This document shows positions 34,729-42,995 of a stretch of 63,105 nucleotides of DNA, piece after piece; the stretch's first letter is position 1, and each line of letters opens with the position of its first letter. The stretch comes from Candidatus Coprovivens sp. (GTDB lineage: Bacteria; Bacillota_I; Bacilli_A; RF39; UBA660): assembly GCA_051886175.1 (NCBI GenBank), contig JBJEXV010000003.1, positions 1-63,105 of the forward strand, given 5' to 3'. Under the pieces are notes generated by a model. The model saw only the letters and a list, made by a program, of their open reading frames with translations. It did no database searches and was not told the origin of the DNA. Both the position numbers and the translations under genes were made by a program.

Positions 34729-35562
34729 TTAGTTAGTTTTTAACAAATTTTTGTTAGTTTCTATCATTTTTATTTGTTTAATTGCTATTTTATTTAGTTT
34801 AATTAATCTTTCACTTTGTGGTATGTTTCTTTCTATCATATCAGCATTAATGTTTTCTAGATTGCATAGTATTAGTAATTGAATGATTGATGCATAATCT
34901 CTAATATTTCCTTTTAATTCTGGATTTGCATCACGCCATTCTTTTGCTGTTAAACCAAATAATGCAACATTTAGAACATCTGCTTCTTCAGCGTAAACAA
35001 ATCTTATTTGTTGCTCTGTTACTGTAGGAATTATATTTTCTTTTATTGCTTCTGTATGAATAAGATAATTTACTTTTGAAAGCATGCGATTGGCATTCCA
35101 TTCTATGTTATGGCGATAAGCTTCGTCTTTTTTTAGTCTTTCAAATTCAGTTATTAGGTATAATTTAAATTCTGGGCTGATCCAGCTTGCGAATTCAAAA
35201 GCGATATCAGGATGTGCATATGTTCCCGAATTGTATCTTCCACCTTTTGATTTTATACCAATAGAATTAGTTCGTCTTATCCATTGTGTTGGAGACATGG
35301 AAAATGAGTTTTTTCCATATTCTGTTTTAATTTGGTCGAATTCGACCAAATTAAAATTATCGTTATTTATTCTTTCCCATAAACCTATGTAATCGATTGT
35401 TGAAATTTTTCTCAGCCAATTTTTTACCGTAAAGGAAGGATCACTTGAGTTTTGATATCTTGCGATATCAGTTAATGATATGTACTCGACATTATTTATT
35501 CTTATAACTTCGACACCATGGTCTTTTATTTTTATTTGTGTTTTGATTATATTATTGTTCAT
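34729..35562 (-). CDS. KilA-N domain DNA-binding protein
   Basis: VEYISLTDIARY...NWLR...GLWE...GGRYNSGTYAHPDIAFEFASWISPEFKLYL is the typical KilA-N/Bro-like core. Confidence 0.7.
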   Translation of the reverse strand: MNNNIIKTQIKIKDHGVEVIRINNVEYISLTDIARYQNSSDPSFTVKNWLRKISTIDYIGLWERINNDNFNLVEFDQIKTEYGKNSFSMSPTQWIRRTNSIGIKSKGGRYNSGTYAHPDIAFEFASWISPEFKLYLITEFERLKKDEAYRHNIEWNANRMLSKVNYLIHTEAIKENIIPTVTEQQIRFVYAEEADVLNVALFGLTAKEWRDANPELKGNIRDYASIIQLLILCNLENINADMIERNIPQSERLIKLNKIAIKQIKMIETNKNLLKTN

Positions 35563-35647: not shown

Positions 35648-37765
35648 TTAGTTTGAAAAATCAAATACTACTTTGTTTTCGTTATCTAATTTTAGTTTGG
35701 CATTGAACTCTTTACCATTTTTAGATATGAATCCTTCTATTTGAGATGTGGTTCCTTCTGATAGTAATTTAATTACATTACTTTTTGATATTACTCTATT
35801 ACAGATAGAAGTATTTATTTTGAATTTACAGTTTTGGTAATCTCTACAACCATATGCGTATCTATTTTTAATTACTTCGTTACCACATATTGGGCATTTA
35901 CCTACTATATCACCGTAGAAGCCGATATCTTTATCTTTTTCTATAGATACATCTTTGTGTTCGAATACTTCTTTTATTTCATTTTGTGCTAGTTGTACTG
36001 AGTTATCAACAGTCATTTCCGAGTGGAATACTTTTTTTAGCGCTTTACCTAGTTCACTAGTTTTATATTTATCCATAGATATATTCATTTGAAGAAGTGA
36101 TTCGATTAGGAATTCACCACCTGGTAAGATAGTATAGACATCTTTTTTTAGTGCTATGTATTCGCTTTTTTTAGCATTATCTATGATACCTGTTCTTGTT
36201 GCATCTGTACCTAGTTCTAGACCGTCTAGAATAGCTCTATAATCTTCTGTATCATCTACTTCTTCACCGTTTTCTATCTTCTCATCTAATTCTTTTTTAT
36301 CTTCTTTAAATGGGTTCATAAGATAGTTATTTAGTGTTTCTATAGTATAATGTTTTGGTGGTGTTGTTTCTTTTTCTTTTAATGTAAATTTAGTATTTAC
36401 TTTATCACCAATATTTATGTTAGGTAGGATTTTATCTTTAGAAGATGGTTGATCAAATTTAGTCCATCCTGGTTCAGTAATAATCATACCTTTTAAAGTA
36501 AAGTCTTCTAAGTCACCAACACTTATTTTTATTTCTGTTTTTTCTACTTTACAGTCTTCGCTACAGAAGACTGCTACGAATCTTTTAAATACTGTTTGGT
36601 ATATTAAGAATTCTTCTTCTGTAAGATTGTTTTTATTAGGTATTTTATATGTAGGTATTAAGGCACTATGTGATTCAATCTTTGAATCATCAAAGATTGT
36701 TTTTTTATCTTTGAATTTAACTGGGTATCCTATTTTAGATATGTTTTCTATAATAGTTTTTATTTTACCTTTTTCATTAACAGCTAGGTATTCTGAGTTT
36801 GTTCTTGGATATGTTAGATATCCATTTTCATATAGTCTTTGTACTATTTCTAATGATTTATCCATAGGTATTTTATATTTTTTACCTAGTAGGTTTTGTA
36901 GTTTAGTAAGTGAGAATAGTTTTGGAGGATTCATAGTATCTTTTTTTACTTTTTTATCTACTACTATTGCATCTACTTCATTATATTTATTACATAGTTC
37001 TTGGGCTTTATTTTGGTCTTTTTTATCGAACTTTTCTTTGCTATTAAGTTCGATTAGTTCACCATTAGTTTCTTCATTAGACCACATACCATAATACATT
37101 TCAGGTTTGAAGTTTCTTATAGCCATATCTCTATCATAGATTGCTTTTACGATAGGTATTATTACTCTACCTACTCTTAGTAATGTACCTGTTTTAAGGG
37201 TTGCGTATCTGGTTAAGTTAACTCCGTATAACCAATCTATGTATGTTCTAGCAAATCCTTCATTAGCTAGGTTGTCATAGTCACTGTCTGGCTTCATTTC
37301 TTTTAATGCTTGGTTTATGGTTTCAGATGTTTGATCTGGTAACCATAAACGATAGATATCTTTATCAGTTTTAAGAGCATTGTTAATACATAGTCTTACT
37401 ATTATTTCTCCTTCTCTATCGGAGTCGCCAGCATTGACTATTTTATCTACATCATCTCTATTACATAGAGATGTTATTATATCGAATTGTTTTTTTACAC
37501 CAGGATCTATTTCTTTGTTGTTATTCTTTTTTAAGTTAAATTTAAATTTATTAGGGAAGCATGGTAAGTTATCCATTTTCCATCTTATTTCTTTAGGGGG
37601 ATTATCTTCATAGTCTTCTATATCTGCTAATGTGAATAAGTGTCCGAATGCCCAAGATACTAGGTACTTGTCATTCGAATAAAAACCATCATTTCTTTTC
37701 ATGTTACCAATAGCAGAAACTATGTTTCTAGCTAATGATGGTTTTTCTGCAATAATAAGAATCAT
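35648..37765 (-). CDS. topB: DNA topoisomerase III (type IA)
   Basis: Toprim start MILIIAEKPS, acidic cluster GDSDREGE, active-site Tyr motif GYLTYPRTNSEYL, and C-terminal Cys-rich zinc-ribbon region (CPICGN...CRDYQNC). Confidence 0.85.
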   Translation of the reverse strand: MILIIAEKPSLARNIVSAIGNMKRNDGFYSNDKYLVSWAFGHLFTLADIEDYEDNPPKEIRWKMDNLPCFPNKFKFNLKKNNNKEIDPGVKKQFDIITSLCNRDDVDKIVNAGDSDREGEIIVRLCINNALKTDKDIYRLWLPDQTSETINQALKEMKPDSDYDNLANEGFARTYIDWLYGVNLTRYATLKTGTLLRVGRVIIPIVKAIYDRDMAIRNFKPEMYYGMWSNEETNGELIELNSKEKFDKKDQNKAQELCNKYNEVDAIVVDKKVKKDTMNPPKLFSLTKLQNLLGKKYKIPMDKSLEIVQRLYENGYLTYPRTNSEYLAVNEKGKIKTIIENISKIGYPVKFKDKKTIFDDSKIESHSALIPTYKIPNKNNLTEEEFLIYQTVFKRFVAVFCSEDCKVEKTEIKISVGDLEDFTLKGMIITEPGWTKFDQPSSKDKILPNINIGDKVNTKFTLKEKETTPPKHYTIETLNNYLMNPFKEDKKELDEKIENGEEVDDTEDYRAILDGLELGTDATRTGIIDNAKKSEYIALKKDVYTILPGGEFLIESLLQMNISMDKYKTSELGKALKKVFHSEMTVDNSVQLAQNEIKEVFEHKDVSIEKDKDIGFYGDIVGKCPICGNEVIKNRYAYGCRDYQNCKFKINTSICNRVISKSNVIKLLSEGTTSQIEGFISKNGKEFNAKLKLDNENKVVFDFSN

Positions 37766-37834
37766 ATACTAAAACCTCCCTTACTTATATAGTTATTTAA
37801 TCAATAGTTATTATAACATAAGATTTGTTTAAAA

Positions 37835-37923
37835 TTAAAGAGACTTATTGTTGGTAAGTCTCTTTAATAGAAGTTGAACCTAGGGTTTCAACTTTAGAAT
37901 TCTAAGCCTGGGGGCTTAGAATT
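37835..37923 (-). terminator. Cluster of three consecutive hairpins at and after the RT 3' end; the last is terminator-like
   Basis: Three stems: an 11-bp stem AATTCTAAGCC/GGCTTAGAATT (37898-37923, inside the last RT codons); GTTGAA/TTCAAC (37873-37892); and a 13-bp stem TTAAAGAGACTTA/TAAGTCTCTTTAA (37835-37867) followed by TTTT. Confidence 0.55.
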
Positions 37924-39252
37924 TATTTTGTTAAATCTAATAAATATTCTTTTTTTTACCATATCTTTAAAAGATATTATATATTTTTCGTTTGGAAATA
38001 CTCTTTTTGCTCTGTTAACATAGGTGATAAATTTTAGATCTTCACTATTTCCTTGTTTCAATTGCTTTAATATCCAATGCTTATCTATTTTACTCTTTTT
38101 CTTTTTATTTAACAAAATACGATATTGTTCTCTTTCAACCATCGAATCAATTTTTCTATATATTTTATAGAAAAATTTTGTTAATGTTTTATCTCTAAAT
38201 TTAATATTAGTACCATCAAACGAAAAACCTAAATATGGAATAAAATTACCGGATGGTTTAAATCCATTTTCTTCATTATGTAACGACTTTATTTTACAAT
38301 TTTCATAAATATAACCTGACGTTTTGCTTTTATTTATTTTTAAATATTTGTAATCTTCTTTAAGTGTAGTTATATAATTCCATAAATCATCAATGGAATT
38401 AACTTCTTCTTTAGGTATTATTAAGATTAAATCATCAGAATATCTCATGTATAATCCACGCTTGTTCTTTGCATATTCATTTAATTTATAATCAAAATCT
38501 ATCATAAATACGTTAGCAAAAATGCCACTTAATGGAGACCCTTGGGGAATCCCATATTCATCATCATGTCGTGTAATTATTATATTTTTTTTAACATCAT
38601 TCCATGAAACTGTTTCAAAAAAAGATTTCAATTTTATAATAGAAGATTCCGTTTCGTACTTATTATTAATTAAAAAATCAATTATATCTTGACGTTCTAC
38701 ATAAGAATAAACTGTCATACTTCTAAATACCTTATACCAATCAGCATCTAATTTATTAACTTTTAATACCCTACAAATATTGTTCTTTAATATTGAATGT
38801 TCCAATGTGTCAAAGAAATCAGAAAAGTCACTGACTAGAACGTAACACTCTTTCAGTGCTTTCATTTTTTCAAAAGCATTAGAAGCAAACTCAATATTTG
38901 TCTTACCTCTTAAGTTAGTTCTATAAGCAACACTGCATTTATTTAAATCATTTTCATTACAGTAAATATTATATGCTTGATTAAGTTTAGATGAATACCA
39001 TTGGTATATATAGCGATCTATGTGAGATGCATATTTTATTGGTCTATCTTTATATTTATAATGATGACCTTCTATTATCTCTTCAGAATATTTTTTTAAT
39101 CTTATTGTTGAACTAATGAACGGGTAAAATCCGTGATGTGTAATGTATTCTTTATTCTGAATTCTATTCATAATATTACGATGCTTATATATATTAAACG
39201 GCATATCTATATGTTTATAATTTTTTTCTTTATATAGTCTTTTCTTTATCAT
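37894..39252 (-). CDS. Stand-alone reverse transcriptase (defence-associated DRT/UG/Abi-like)
   Basis: RT motif A VLVSDFSDFFDTL, motif GIPQGSPLSGIFANVFM, and catalytic YSDD (38431-38442, checked). YLGFSF follows, then a ~100-aa tail. No maturase, endonuclease or other fused domain. Confidence 0.8.
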   Translation of the reverse strand: MIKKRLYKEKNYKHIDMPFNIYKHRNIMNRIQNKEYITHHGFYPFISSTIRLKKYSEEIIEGHHYKYKDRPIKYASHIDRYIYQWYSSKLNQAYNIYCNENDLNKCSVAYRTNLRGKTNIEFASNAFEKMKALKECYVLVSDFSDFFDTLEHSILKNNICRVLKVNKLDADWYKVFRSMTVYSYVERQDIIDFLINNKYETESSIIKLKSFFETVSWNDVKKNIIITRHDDEYGIPQGSPLSGIFANVFMIDFDYKLNEYAKNKRGLYMRYSDDLILIIPKEEVNSIDDLWNYITTLKEDYKYLKINKSKTSGYIYENCKIKSLHNEENGFKPSGNFIPYLGFSFDGTNIKFRDKTLTKFFYKIYRKIDSMVEREQYRILLNKKKKSKIDKHWILKQLKQGNSEDLKFITYVNRAKRVFPNEKYIISFKDMVKKRIFIRFNKINSKPPGLEF

Positions 39253-39558
39253 AAAACTCCCCTAAAAATGAAGAAACACATCCAGGTGCAGCGCCCTATA
39301 TGGATGTGCTCATACTCAACTTTTCAAGATTTAATTCTTCATTATTGTCTTTACTTAGCTCTTTTTAATGCTGCTCCTCTAAACATTAGATGTTATATAA
39401 TTATATTAAGTAAAGTACTGAATGTCATAATTCAATTCTTCACTACAATTATACTGTCAAAGCGAGGTGGTTCAATAATGAACTTTAACTTTAACATCAT
39501 AATCGTCAATATAGTATTGACAATTAACATTCTAACCTACGATACAATTTACCGTAGC
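39253..39558 (-). ncRNA. Candidate structured non-coding RNA or long 5' leader upstream of the RT
   Basis: About 300 nt lie between a good promoter and the RT start, with no credible minus-strand ORF. Hairpins include CTACG/CGTAG (39537-39557), GTCAATA/TATTGAC (39505-39521) and GC-rich CACATCCA/TGGATGTG (39277-39308). Confidence 0.35.
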
Positions 39559-39565
39559 AATATAT

Positions 39566-39593
39566 ATTATACTCAATAACCACAAAAAATCAA
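39566..39593 (-). promoter_or_regulatory. Sigma-A promoter for the RT leader
   Basis: Minus strand TTGATT-16 nt-TATAAT, directly after the upstream terminator. Confidence 0.5.
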
Positions 39594-39594
39594 T

Positions 39595-39627
39595 AAAGAA
39601 AAAGGATATTAATGGTTAATATCCTTT
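39595..39627 (-). terminator. Rho-independent terminator after the 188-aa membrane protein gene
   Basis: 12-bp stem AAAGGATATTAA/TTAATATCCTTT (39601-39627) followed by a T-rich tract on the minus strand. Confidence 0.7.
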
Positions 39628-39710
39628 AGTATGTAAGTTTATATAGTATTCTTTATAACTATAATAATTAAATAGATTAATATCTATTATAGATAGATAT
39701 ACTGTATAAG

Positions 39711-40277
39711 CTATTGTTTTTTTGTGCTAATAGTTGCTATAGAGTATGCTGCATAAACTAATATTATTTGATATAAGATAATATTAACTACAATATTAAT
39801 AACAGTTTGTATTTTCATTGCACCATATCCTAAGGCACAACCAATTGCAATACTAAATATACCGCCGATAATATTATTAATTTTTTTTGTTTCTTTTTCT
39901 TTTTTATTTGTAAAAAACATTATTATTCCAACAATTACGAACAACCATGCACCAGCAACAAACTTTATCAACTTATTTCCTGGTGTTGTTTCTGTAACAA
40001 AAATATTATTAAGATAATTTTCTTCTTTTGTTTCTATTTCTTCCAAAATCAAGTTATATTCTCTTTCCAATTTTTCGTTACTATATATTTCTTCTTTATC
40101 TATTACTGTTATTTTTTCTAAAATCTCAATTCTATTTGAAATTCTTTTATAATATAAAAAATTGGCGTCTATTATTGGATAGCACATAATAACTAGCAAA
40201 ACAAATATAATGAATGCCCATGCAATCTTTTTATAATTTTTAGTATCTTTTAATATATTTAATATAATTTCTTTCAC
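39711..40277 (-). CDS. Membrane protein: one N-terminal TM, a coiled-coil, then three C-terminal TMs
   Basis: 188 aa. TMs are WAFIIFVLLVIMCYPII, AGAWLFVIVGIIMFF, IIGGIFSIAIGCALGYGA and VVNIILYQIILVYAAYSI. No family motif recognised. Confidence 0.55.
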   Translation of the reverse strand: MKEIILNILKDTKNYKKIAWAFIIFVLLVIMCYPIIDANFLYYKRISNRIEILEKITVIDKEEIYSNEKLEREYNLILEEIETKEENYLNNIFVTETTPGNKLIKFVAGAWLFVIVGIIMFFTNKKEKETKKINNIIGGIFSIAIGCALGYGAMKIQTVINIVVNIILYQIILVYAAYSIATISTKKQ

Positions 40278-40458
40278 ATTATCTCTCCTTTAACAAAATT
40301 TCATTAACTAATACATTTTTTTTAATATTCTTTACTCCTTTCTTTTTAGATTTTTAACACTTCTTCAGTAGTATATTATAAGTTTTTATTTATAAAAGAC
40401 AATAGAAATATGGATTTTAGAATATATTATTTGATTATATTAAATATAGTTTTATATA

Positions 40459-40486
40459 ACAAAAAACATATCTTGCGATATGTTTT
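40459..40486 (-). terminator. Rho-independent terminator after the HTH-ImmA gene
   Basis: Stem AAAACATATC/GATATGTTTT (40463-40486) running into Ts on the minus strand. Confidence 0.6.
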
Positions 40487-41513
40487 ATTCTTCTATTAAT
40501 GGGTTGTGTTCTTGGTATAGAGATGAATTGTAGTTTATTATTTTATCGTGTGCTAGTCTATATACATAGAATGATTTAATTATGTTTAGGTTGTTTATAT
40601 TGTTACTTTGTTTTTTTATTGTTTGATATAGTTTATCATCTATCATCCAATTGAATGCAGTTTGATCTGCTTTTATTTCATAGTCTTCTACTTGTTTATC
40701 TTCAGTAGTTACTATACTACCACTTTTTGCTCTATTGAAGTCACTTTTGCAATGTGCTAGTTCATGTAGTAATGCAAAGTAGATGTCTGCATATCTTTTA
40801 TGTTTTTTAGTTATATAGATAGCTGGTTTATCATTTAATACTTTAAATGCTCCACGTATTTTAGATCCAGTTAAGTCTTTTTCTATAGCTAGGAAGATAC
40901 CATTATCATTAAATACTTTTATTAGTTCTTCTTTATTGAATATGTTTTTATGAGCTTGTTCTCTTATATAGTTAACTATTTTTTCAATATTTTCTTTTTT
41001 ATATTCTTTTACTTGTTGTTCTGATACTACTTTATAACATCTTTCTAACCATAGTACTAATAGTTCTTTTTTGTTATTATTGCTTTTATATAGTATTGAG
41101 TTATCTTCTTTATATATTGTTTCTGGATTAGTTATTCTTAAGTATTTTAATATATCTTTTGCTATTTCATAATCATCTAATATATCTGTATATCTATAGT
41201 TATATTCTTTACTTAGTTCTTTATAGTTAAATCTATTTATGAATTTACGTATTGTTAGATTATGTTTATCTAAGAATGCTTTTATTATTTTATCCATTTT
41301 AAAACTACGTTCTACATTTTCAATATATGATACTGGTATTTCTGTAACAAATGCTATGTTATATATCATATTTTGAGATATTTCAATGTTACCTTTTATT
41401 ATATCGATCATGTTCTTAGGTGTTGTATTTACTCTTTCAGCAAATTCTTTAACACTTATGTTTTTGTATTCTAGAAATTCTCCTAGTTGTTTACCAAATT
41501 CATTCATCATCAA
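40485..41513 (-). CDS. XRE-type HTH fused to an ImmA/IrrE-family zinc metallopeptidase (putative antitoxin/regulator)
   Basis: N-terminal HTH (ISVKEFAERVNTTPKNMIDIIKG) and C-terminal HExxH (FALLHELAHC). Overlaps the upstream toxin-like ORF by 14 nt. Confidence 0.7.
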   Translation of the reverse strand: MMMNEFGKQLGEFLEYKNISVKEFAERVNTTPKNMIDIIKGNIEISQNMIYNIAFVTEIPVSYIENVERSFKMDKIIKAFLDKHNLTIRKFINRFNYKELSKEYNYRYTDILDDYEIAKDILKYLRITNPETIYKEDNSILYKSNNNKKELLVLWLERCYKVVSEQQVKEYKKENIEKIVNYIREQAHKNIFNKEELIKVFNDNGIFLAIEKDLTGSKIRGAFKVLNDKPAIYITKKHKRYADIYFALLHELAHCKSDFNRAKSGSIVTTEDKQVEDYEIKADQTAFNWMIDDKLYQTIKKQSNNINNLNIIKSFYVYRLAHDKIINYNSSLYQEHNPLIEE

Positions 41514-41841
41514 ATATCACTCCTTTTGGATTAAAATCATTATAGTGATTCATACTTATATATACTAATTCAATAATTATTATATTATCCTGATAACGTC
41601 CAATTAATCTTATTGGACTTTTCTTTTTAGATAATCTAAACGAGAAGTAACCTGTTAAATTATCTTTTAGTTCCTCAAAGTCATAAAGGTATGCAAGAGG
41701 AGTATTTTTTAGTAAGTCATAAGTATTAGATCTTTTTATTAATTTAATAATTTTTTCTAATGTATTAAGTTCTTCTGTTTTATGTTTTTTCTTTAACTCT
41801 TTTATTCCTTTTATGTAATTCTTGCTGTATCTAAGTTGCAT
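41500..41841 (-). CDS. RelE/ParE-superfamily toxin-like protein
   Basis: 113 aa. The pattern ...GYFSFRLSKKKSPIRLIGRYQDNIIIIELVYISMNHY is typical of RelE/HigB-like folds (by eye). Toxin-first order with an overlapping HTH gene. Confidence 0.5.
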   Translation of the reverse strand: MQLRYSKNYIKGIKELKKKHKTEELNTLEKIIKLIKRSNTYDLLKNTPLAYLYDFEELKDNLTGYFSFRLSKKKSPIRLIGRYQDNIIIIELVYISMNHYNDFNPKGVIFDDE

Positions 41842-41865
41842 TAAAACCTCCTGATTTATATTTGT

Positions 41866-41894
41866 ATATTAACATACAAGTTAATATATGTAAA
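41866..41894 (-). promoter_or_regulatory. Promoter with an embedded inverted repeat (probable TA operator)
   Basis: Minus strand TTTACA-17 nt-TAATAT. The spacer and -10 contain ATATTAAC-n6-GTTAATAT (41866-41887). Confidence 0.5.
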
Positions 41895-41907
41895 TGTTTT
41901 TTATTAT

Positions 41908-41953
41908 CCACTTCTACACTATATATTATAGGTGGATTTGCTATTTCCTTTTT
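41908..41953 (-). repeat. Conserved ~45-bp intergenic element, copy 3 (upstream of the RelE-like promoter)
   Basis: Minus strand AAAAAGGAAAT-N11-CTATAATATATAGTGTAGAAGTGG. Confidence 0.7.
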
Positions 41954-41954
41954 A

Positions 41955-41984
41955 CAAAACAAAAAACATACTAAAAAGTATGTC
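41955..41984 (-). terminator. Rho-independent terminator after the Panacea-antitoxin gene
   Basis: Stem ACATACT/AGTATGT followed by TTTTTT on the minus strand, immediately after the stop at 41985. Confidence 0.6.
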
Positions 41985-42995
41985 TTATTTTGTTTCTAAA
42001 TTTAATTGTGCTCTTTCAAATAAATCAGTACTGTACTCTTTTAAGTCATCTATTTTATTTATATTATATTTTTTTATAATTTCATTCACGTAAAAATCAA
42101 TATCTTTTAAATCAATAATTCTATTAGAAGATTCATCTTCTTCTAATCCTTCACGAGCCATTTGCCATGGCTTAGTTAAGTGAGTCATTTCTCTTAGTAC
42201 TCTAGCACTATAACATCCAAAATATTTAATAATAGAATCTAAGTATTGTTTTTCATCTTCTTCTAATGTAAATTCATGTTCTTTTAATAATTCATTATAG
42301 TTAATAGTATTATTTTTATAATATGAAAAGCAGTCGTATATGTCTCTATATACAGGGCCATATTTCCATGCTTCTGCCGGTACTAAGAATAAATTTTTAT
42401 TTAGAAATTTTTCACTAAAGCATTGTGCAAAGTATAATATTTTTTGTAATGCTAATGGTGTTGTATCTTCAAGTTCTTTTACTATATATAGAGCACTATC
42501 ATATAGTTTAGAATTATCTTTATTCATTTGTAACTGTTTAGTTTTACCTAATGATTTTTTAAATGCTACTTCTGTTATTTTATCTTTATTACCTAGTAAA
42601 AATAGTTCATATAAATGTGGATCTTTATTTATATTTTTTAATAATTCTGAATTTTCTTTAGTTGGGTTTTGACCATCTAAGTATCTAGTAATAGTTATTT
42701 CACCTAATCCAAGTAATAATGATAATGGCTTTTTACCAATGTTATATTTTTCAATTATTTCTTCTATTTCTGAAATAGTTACTGTACCATATGCTTTTCT
42801 TATTTCGTTGTTAGCAGTTAAAACATTATAATCATTTAAATCATCATAAAATTCGTTATTACATTCATTACATACATAGTATTTTTCTAAAAATTCGAAT
42901 TTTTTATTATCGTAAAAAAATGTTTTTATTCGTTCATTGTATTTACAGTCAACATCTTTAAAACAATGTTCACAAAATTTTTTATATTTTTTCAT
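41985..42995 (-). CDS. Antitoxin-like protein: MqsA-type zinc ribbon + HTH + Panacea (DUF4065) domain
   Basis: CxxC...CxxC (CEHC...CNEC), HTH (KKPLSLLLGLGEITITRYLDG), and Panacea-like ALQKILYFAQCF...AWKYGPVYRDIY. Start set at 42995 (ATG behind AGGGTG). Confidence 0.6.
   Translation of the reverse strand: MKKYKKFCEHCFKDVDCKYNERIKTFFYDNKKFEFLEKYYVCNECNNEFYDDLNDYNVLTANNEIRKAYGTVTISEIEEIIEKYNIGKKPLSLLLGLGEITITRYLDGQNPTKENSELLKNINKDPHLYELFLLGNKDKITEVAFKKSLGKTKQLQMNKDNSKLYDSALYIVKELEDTTPLALQKILYFAQCFSEKFLNKNLFLVPAEAWKYGPVYRDIYDCFSYYKNNTINYNELLKEHEFTLEEDEKQYLDSIIKYFGCYSARVLREMTHLTKPWQMAREGLEEDESSNRIIDLKDIDFYVNEIIKKYNINKIDDLKEYSTDLFERAQLNLETK

Follow-up and report, generated by a model that had tools for sequence, protein, structure and literature searches.

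A divergent DRT2-type reverse transcriptase and its structured leader RNA in a gut Bacilli genome, with a hidden gene predicted in the concatemer of its template

The DRT2 system is defined by a reverse transcriptase (RT) with an upstream pseudoknotted non-coding RNA (ncRNA) of about 280 nucleotides (nt), with ACA motifs on either side of a central template (Wilkinson et al. 2024, PMC12039810; Tang et al. 2024, bioRxiv 10.1101/2024.05.08.593200). The ncRNA is required by this class (PMC12039810). Rolling-circle reverse transcription of the template yields tandem repeats of complementary DNA (cDNA), from which the neo gene arises: the repeat unit has a length divisible by 3 and one stop-free antisense frame, a −10 and a −35 element stand 17 base pairs (bp) apart only across the repeat junction, and a ribosome-binding site (RBS) and a start codon follow (PMC12039810; 10.1101/2024.05.08.593200). 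Tang et al. also predicted ncRNAs for divergent DRT2 clades, in which they found the annotation of Neo “more challenging” (10.1101/2024.05.08.593200). Two further defence RTs, DRT9 and DRT10, are class 2 UG systems (PMC12483538, PMC12632851). Here we describe an RT gene and its leader in contig JBJEXV010000003.1 of Candidatus Coprovivens sp. (assembly GCA_051886175.1). The stretch analysed, referred to below as the window, is this whole contig of 63,105 nt and belongs to a 1.47-Mb, 75%-complete metagenome-assembled genome (MAG). The host is a low-GC gut Bacilli-type organism, far from the proteobacteria in which the DRT2 mechanism was worked out. We propose that an ncRNA and an RT here form a two-part anti-phage system of the DRT2 (UG2) type, in which a concatemer of the template would build an endless gene for a hydrophobic repeat protein, and we assign this reading a probability of roughly 0.82.

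An earlier annotation made from the letters of the window (hereafter the sequence-only reading) had described a stand-alone RT of 452 amino acids (aa) with no fused effector. The three motifs that it named are in place (SDFSDFFD at residues 141–148, GIPQGSPLSG at 234–243 and YSDD at 271–274), and the Pfam search returned RVT_1 alone (residues 70–315). The class of the enzyme had been left open, and we compared the protein with reference families. The PADLOC Drt2 model covered residues 5–435 with an E-value of 5.5e-117 and about 390 bits, against E-values of 1e-21 or worse and at most 75 bits for the other PADLOC families, which included UG39 (E 1.1e-21), Drt9 (E 1.6e-19), retron and CRISPR-associated RTs. 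Among solved structures, strong matches were obtained only to Klebsiella pneumoniae Drt2 chains, and the alignment to 9c0i_A (E 3.1e-50, residues 7–423) ran end to end. By these family and structure matches, the RT is a divergent DRT2/UG2 enzyme.

The region upstream of the RT was compared across homologous loci, 80 from genomes and 11 from metagenomes, the latter found with the leader pattern; a later set comprised 12 more distinct loci (13 contigs) fetched through the RT protein alone. Loci whose RT is 48–88% identical to that of the window are called the close clade. The promoter that had been read by eye was recovered by a consensus scan (Table 1) and is kept in homologous loci: in about 30 leaders the −10 element is invariant, the −35 element is conserved, and sequence conservation starts directly after the −10. 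Close-clade leaders align from just past the −10 to the RBS of the RT gene. Their nucleotide identity to the window is 76–78%, as opposed to 66–69% for the RT gene, so that the upstream non-coding region, which the sequence-only reading had proposed to look for in homologous loci, is present and is conserved more than the RT gene itself. The approximately 300 nt between promoter and start codon hold no credible same-strand open reading frame (ORF), as had been claimed; the longest sense open stretch in the 500 nt upstream of the RT measures 108 nt and lies outside the leader. Together with the class assignment, this conserved region supports the earlier inference of an ncRNA-dependent defence RT.

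The leader is also structured, as had been suggested from its hairpins. Its folding energy was −89.4 kcal/mol, compared with −67.5 ± 5.2 kcal/mol in shuffled sequences (z = −4.25; 0/100 shuffles reached the observed value). An alignment of 15 leader sequences on a 64-pair structure had 97.8% of its structure cells paired, and changes on both sides were found in 20 pairs, compared with 6.3 ± 1.7 in shuffles (0/500) and 3–6 in controls with slid pairing partners. Ten helices of the ncRNA received covariation support, including the pseudoknot, whose 3′ arm is the loop of the terminal hairpin (GCUGC, 39288–39292); one relative, L103, carries a fifth complementary variant of this pairing (GCGGG/CCCGC). 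The hairpin singled out earlier as unusually GC-rich (CACATCC...GGATGTG, 39310–39275) is this terminal hairpin, which is conserved and shows compensatory changes. No Rfam family matched in a search of positions 36000–42000. The ncRNA element is present as a single copy in the genome, and its pattern was absent from the viral contigs searched. The motif (G)UGAAGAAU (minus-strand GAAGAAU) occurs twice in the ncRNA, inside the template at 39435–39442 and in the scaffold linker at 39334–39341. The invariant UCUUCA at the ncRNA 3′ end (39269–39274) is a possible pairing partner of each copy, and such a pairing would recall the duplex between the 3′ end and the linker in the elongating Klebsiella complex.

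Signals of the neo type, which the sequence-only reading did not mention, lie on the strand antisense to the leader. One antisense frame is open for 113 codons at a GC content of 28.7%, and in nearly all of 80 relatives the longest antisense open stretch is found approximately 100–300 nt upstream of the RT. Two copies of AATGTT (RNA sense), 279 and 135 nt upstream of the RT start, define a unit of 144 nt, a length divisible by 3. In two relatives (L084 and L092) both copies of this putative jump repeat have changed alike, to UAUGUU, and in some others the copies share just 3 nt. When the reverse complement of the unit was read as a concatemer, one frame had no stop codon per lap, while the other two antisense frames had 9 and 5 and the sense frames had 3, 2 and 11. 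The repeat junction, TTGACAATTAACATT joined to AGATGTTATATAAT, creates a perfect TTGACA-N17-TATAAT promoter with a 17-bp spacer. At the corresponding distance (17 bp) upstream of TATAAT, the linear genome has the hexamer GCTCCT, and therefore no −35 element, and no promoter, exists there. The joined junction sequence was absent from the window's own assembly, and the junction pattern was absent from the viral contigs searched. The predicted RBS and ATG stand in the stop-free frame; the complement of the RBS core, CCACCTC, was found in 15/15 aligned leaders (in L011 it is aligned out of register), with the ATG in frame 0. The predicted 48-aa repeat peptide, MNFNFNIIIVNIVLTINIRCYIIILSKVLNVIIQFFTTIILSKRGGSI, has no acidic residue, and its grand average of hydropathy is +1.31, compared with 0.15 ± 0.37 in stop-free shuffles, of which 0/1500 were as high. 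An ORF of 103 aa on the plus strand (39268–39579) is best read as an incidental product of the open template frame and the sequence flanking it, rather than as a gene.

Table 1. Features of the predicted DRT2 locus (window coordinates)
Feature	Position	Strand	Basis
DRT2/UG2 reverse transcriptase, 452 aa, catalytic YSDD, no extra domain	37894–39252	−	PADLOC, NCBIfam and PDB matches
Promoter of ncRNA-RT transcript: −35 TTGATT 39593–39588, −10 TATAAT 39571–39566, 16-nt spacer	39566–39593	−	consensus scan
Predicted DRT2 ncRNA, about 295 nt: 5′ handle, template, 3′ scaffold; ends inferred	39268–39560	−	conservation, covariation
5′ handle hairpin P1, 9 pairs	39535–39558	−	4 pairs with compensatory changes (CG to UA)
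5′ copy of putative jump repeat AAUGUU, first template bases	39526–39531	−	direct repeat 144 nt from 3′ copy
Template unit, 144 nt; reverse complement (+ strand) is the predicted cDNA/neo repeat	39388–39531	−	one stop-free circular frame
3′ copy of putative jump repeat AAUGUU, just outside template	39382–39387	−	direct repeat
Pseudoknot 5′ arm GCAGC, pairs with 39288–39292	39370–39374	−	4/5 pairs compensatory, 100% of cells paired
Scaffold hairpin P7/P8, between pseudoknot arm and terminal hairpin, 8 pairs	39318–39360	−	6 pairs with both-side changes
Terminal GC-rich hairpin P9/P10, 12 pairs	39275–39310	−	4 pairs with compensatory changes
Predicted neo −35 TTGACA, 9 nt before end of cDNA-sense unit	39517–39522	+	junction reading
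Predicted neo −10 TATAAT, 8 nt from start of cDNA-sense unit	39396–39401	+	junction reading
Predicted neo RBS GAGGTGG (39464–39470), N7, ATG (39478–39480), in stop-free frame	39464–39480	+	conserved in leaders

The same signals were sought in relatives, with shuffled units serving as the chance null for an open circular frame. All 144-nt segments of the contig proved useless as a null, because the contig is mostly coding and 52% of such segments are open. In the close clade, unit lengths were 138, 144, 147, 150, 153 and 162 nt, all divisible by 3, and insertions and deletions between these units are multiples of three. A 3n stop-free unit was found in 22/30 close leaders that retain a template. 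We also scanned 81 loci with criteria that ignore reading frames (a split promoter with at least 11/12 matching positions and a boundary repeat no shorter than 4 nt). A candidate unit was detected in 66, of which 57 had a length divisible by 3 and 56 were stop-free; the corresponding controls gave 1 on the sense strand and 0 in shuffled sequences. Among previously unseen leaders fetched by the RT protein alone, 9/11 had a 3n unit with exactly one stop-free frame. As a positive control, the drt2 locus annotated by the NCBI annotation pipeline PGAP on Photobacterium damselae plasmid pPHDD1 returned a 111-nt unit, a 12/12 promoter and an open frame; a unit length of 111 nt has been reported (PMC12039810). 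Sequence and comparison show the class of the RT, the fold of its RNA, the template, and the signals for a gene in the predicted concatemer.

As a whole, these features suggest the following course of events, much of which is modelled on the Klebsiella work. One promoter (39593–39566) would transcribe the pseudoknotted ncRNA of about 295 nt and then the RT gene, and the RT would bind this ncRNA at its 5′ handle and 3′ scaffold. After priming, the 144-nt template as bounded here would be copied from 39531 to 39388 and, by analogy with Klebsiella, the nascent cDNA end would, on reaching the 5′ AAUGUU, re-pair with the second copy of this repeat immediately 3′ of the template, whereupon copying would restart; repeated jumps would produce tandem 144-nt cDNA repeats. 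Phage infection would lead to second-strand synthesis, making the repeats double-stranded. The concatemer promoter (TTGACA and TATAAT 17 bp apart at each junction) could then give transcripts with GAGGTGG-N7-ATG and the stop-free frame, and hence a very hydrophobic protein of 48-aa repeats. This protein may arrest the growth of the infected cell, that is, act by abortive infection.

In its organization the locus closely resembles DRT2 of K. pneumoniae. Both have a stand-alone RT of about 430–450 aa that aligns end to end, and an upstream ncRNA of about 280–300 nt served by one promoter and made up of a 5′ hairpin, a central template and a pseudoknotted 3′ scaffold. In both, a short direct repeat, with only a putative role in the template jump here, bounds the template, the unit is divisible by three and its antisense concatemer is stop-free, the −35 and −10 elements are out of order in the genome and come to lie 17 bp apart over the junction, and an RBS and ATG precede a hydrophobic repeat product. 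The two differ in the jump repeat, which is putatively AAUGUU here (with a core of AUG(U) and a length of 3–8 nt in relatives) instead of ACA, in the length of the unit (144 nt, or 48 aa, here and 111–129 nt there), in the distance from the −10 to the ATG (76 nt past the −10 here and 13 nt there), and in the active site (YSDD here, YCDD there). Moreover, the ncRNAs cannot be aligned: the 3′ scaffold model of the window misses the proteobacterial loci, as well as most distant Firmicutes loci, with two weak matches only (E about 0.02). Judged on sequence, the locus is DRT2 on every testable feature except the exact jump motif, and not a new kind of system. Like the divergent clades of Tang et al., it pairs the RT of a distant DRT2 homologue with an associated ncRNA, but here the neo unit can be read clearly through the split promoter and the boundary repeat. 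DRT9 and DRT10 are likewise defence RTs templated by an ncRNA, with repetitive or homopolymer DNA as their product; the RT similarity to them is, however, much weaker, no conserved partner protein accompanies the RT here, and the template holds gene signals instead of a short repeat or a U-tract. Retrons also combine an RT with an adjacent ncRNA in phage defence, whereas the window RT matches their hidden Markov models weakly and has no effector gene, and the sequence-only reading saw neither a1/a2 repeats nor a branching G. These last features are not expected, because the RT is not a retron RT.

Several observations weigh against reading the locus as a DRT2 system with an endless gene. The RT scored 330.9 bits with the NCBIfam Drt2 equivalog model, under the curated cut-off of 390, and therefore belongs to a divergent branch of the family. 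The ACA/ACA motifs of the Klebsiella type are not found at the template boundaries of the window, and the spacing between −10 and ATG is far longer than in Klebsiella. Taken one sequence at a time, 3–8% of shuffled units have an open circular frame by chance, and the weight of the case therefore rests on comparison. A perfect split promoter together with an open circular frame can be placed 75 times on the 63-kb contig, so that this signature is not unique by itself. Seven related leaders with units of 152 or 149 nt lack the endless frame. Finally, substitutions in the template were distributed over the codon positions as 38/30/38, with no third-position excess. This fits a published remark according to which nucleotide signals and a hydrophobic bias are the main constraints on Neo, yet it does not independently prove that the repeat is translated; apart from the absence of stops, the 3n length and the hydrophobic bias, no coding constraint is visible in the template.

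The seven leaders and the lack of amino-acid-level purifying selection in the template bear most directly on a variant of the proposal, in which a DRT2-family RT and its ncRNA still make repeat cDNA and the effector is a one-lap peptide, or the DNA or RNA itself, instead of an endless protein. In those leaders a one-lap ORF of 50 codons stops over the next ATG. We consider this variant unlikely, since the window unit is divisible by three and stop-free, as are those of most close relatives with a template, and since it has a conserved RBS and ATG and a strongly hydrophobic product. Alternatively, the leader would be a mere regulatory 5′ untranslated region, and the 103-aa plus-strand ORF would be an ordinary small gene, for which a 113-codon antisense open frame is unusual at this GC content. 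In relatives, however, the antisense frame, read along the linear sequence, stays open over the template alone and meets a stop immediately at the 5′ edge of the template; no RBS can be made out by eye for the ATG at 39268; no riboswitch or leader family matched in the Rfam search of 36000–42000; and the 3n rule and the split promoter make sense only for a concatemer. This explanation is accordingly very improbable.

The weak Drt9 and UG39 matches given above, together with a four-helix membrane protein encoded just upstream (39711–40277), could point to another class 2 UG system, either DRT9-like, making poly-dA, or DRT10-like, making telomerase-like short repeats, with the 188-aa membrane protein as partner. 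Against this, the Drt2 model scores about 390 bits and the others at most 75, and the membrane protein has no family match and is found in 0/91 related RT loci, which leaves such a system with very little likelihood. Least probable is that the locus represents a retron or the RT, intact or remnant, of a group II intron. General RT similarity makes models of both types match the catalytic core, but the retron models reach E-values of only 1e-9 to 1e-15, compared with 1e-117 for Drt2, and the group II maturase model reaches 61 bits for a cut-off of 300. No intron RNA family was found in 36000–42000, and Pfam detected no maturase or endonuclease domain in the RT. As regards retrons, no conserved effector is present among the four neighbouring genes tested, and a1/a2 repeats were not seen by eye in the sequence-only reading, no tool search having been made for them.

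Among the related leaders with non-3n units, those with 152 nt are L005, L088, L091 and L106 as one group and L084 and L092 as another, and L101 has a unit of 149 nt. In these, the conserved RBS-ATG opens an ORF of 50 codons that crosses the junction, runs for one lap and ends with a stop codon overlapping the next ATG (TAATG or ATGA), a state that was reached by different indels in at least three lineages. With such one-lap ORFs, the concatemer would hold identical small ORFs in tandem, not an endless one. One untemplated added base was considered as a frame rescue; it would work for the 152-nt units of the L005 lineage, where an endless frame results, but fails for those of the L084 lineage, and was not adopted. 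A further relative, L102 (about 960–1200), retains an intact RT of 444 aa, the promoter, the 5′ handle and the 3′ scaffold (RNA model, 112 bits); nearly its whole template is deleted, and it has no neo signals. A tentative and rather doubtful further reading is that a gut Firmicutes branch of DRT2 re-implements gene building by the RT with a code of its own (a 3–8-nt AUG(U) jump repeat, units of 138–162 nt and a long leader before the ATG) and that several of its lineages have switched to the one-lap 50-codon ORF. If so, the concatemer would be a tandem polycistron of small hydrophobic peptides, endless translation would not be essential to DRT2 immunity, and the working unit would be a single membrane-active peptide of about 50 aa.

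The RT was absent from 40 related genomes, 24 of them of the same genus. Directly downstream of it lies a topoisomerase III-type gene (35648–37765, minus strand) with Toprim and Topoisom_bac domains and a C-terminal zinc repeat; the N-terminus of its product also matches PADLOC DpdF (E 8e-54). A KilA-N domain protein (34729–35562, minus strand) strongly matches PDC-S22, a candidate defence family of PADLOC (E 1.3e-120), and a 342-aa helix-turn-helix (HTH) protein at 40485–41841 (minus strand) matches PADLOC PD-Lambda-2_B (E 5e-17) and overlaps a weak YoeB/RelE-like ORF of 113 aa. The HTH protein and this ORF, together with the RT, mark a putative defence island. Just upstream of the RT locus, 39711–40277 (minus strand) encodes the multi-pass membrane protein of 188 aa mentioned above. 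This protein was considered as an effector and ruled out, with no Pfam or PADLOC match and no occurrence in the 91 related RT loci. All four neighbours tested (the topoisomerase III, the KilA-N protein, the HTH-peptidase and the membrane protein) recur in 0/91 related loci, and the surroundings of the relatives contain restriction, Mrr, Thoeris, AbiE, OLD-type and integrase genes. Since the neighbours do not recur and the relatives lie among defence genes, the module probably consists of the leader and the RT, which would move between defence islands.

Genome annotation would do best to label the leader as a DRT2 ncRNA and to call no gene for the antisense ORF of 103 aa. The split junction promoter, combined with a boundary repeat, offers a simple, frame-blind route to the hidden gene in divergent DRT2 branches. 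The locus described here would place the DRT2 mechanism, whose gene comes into being only when DNA is made from an RNA by head-to-tail copying, in a gut bacterium of low GC content.

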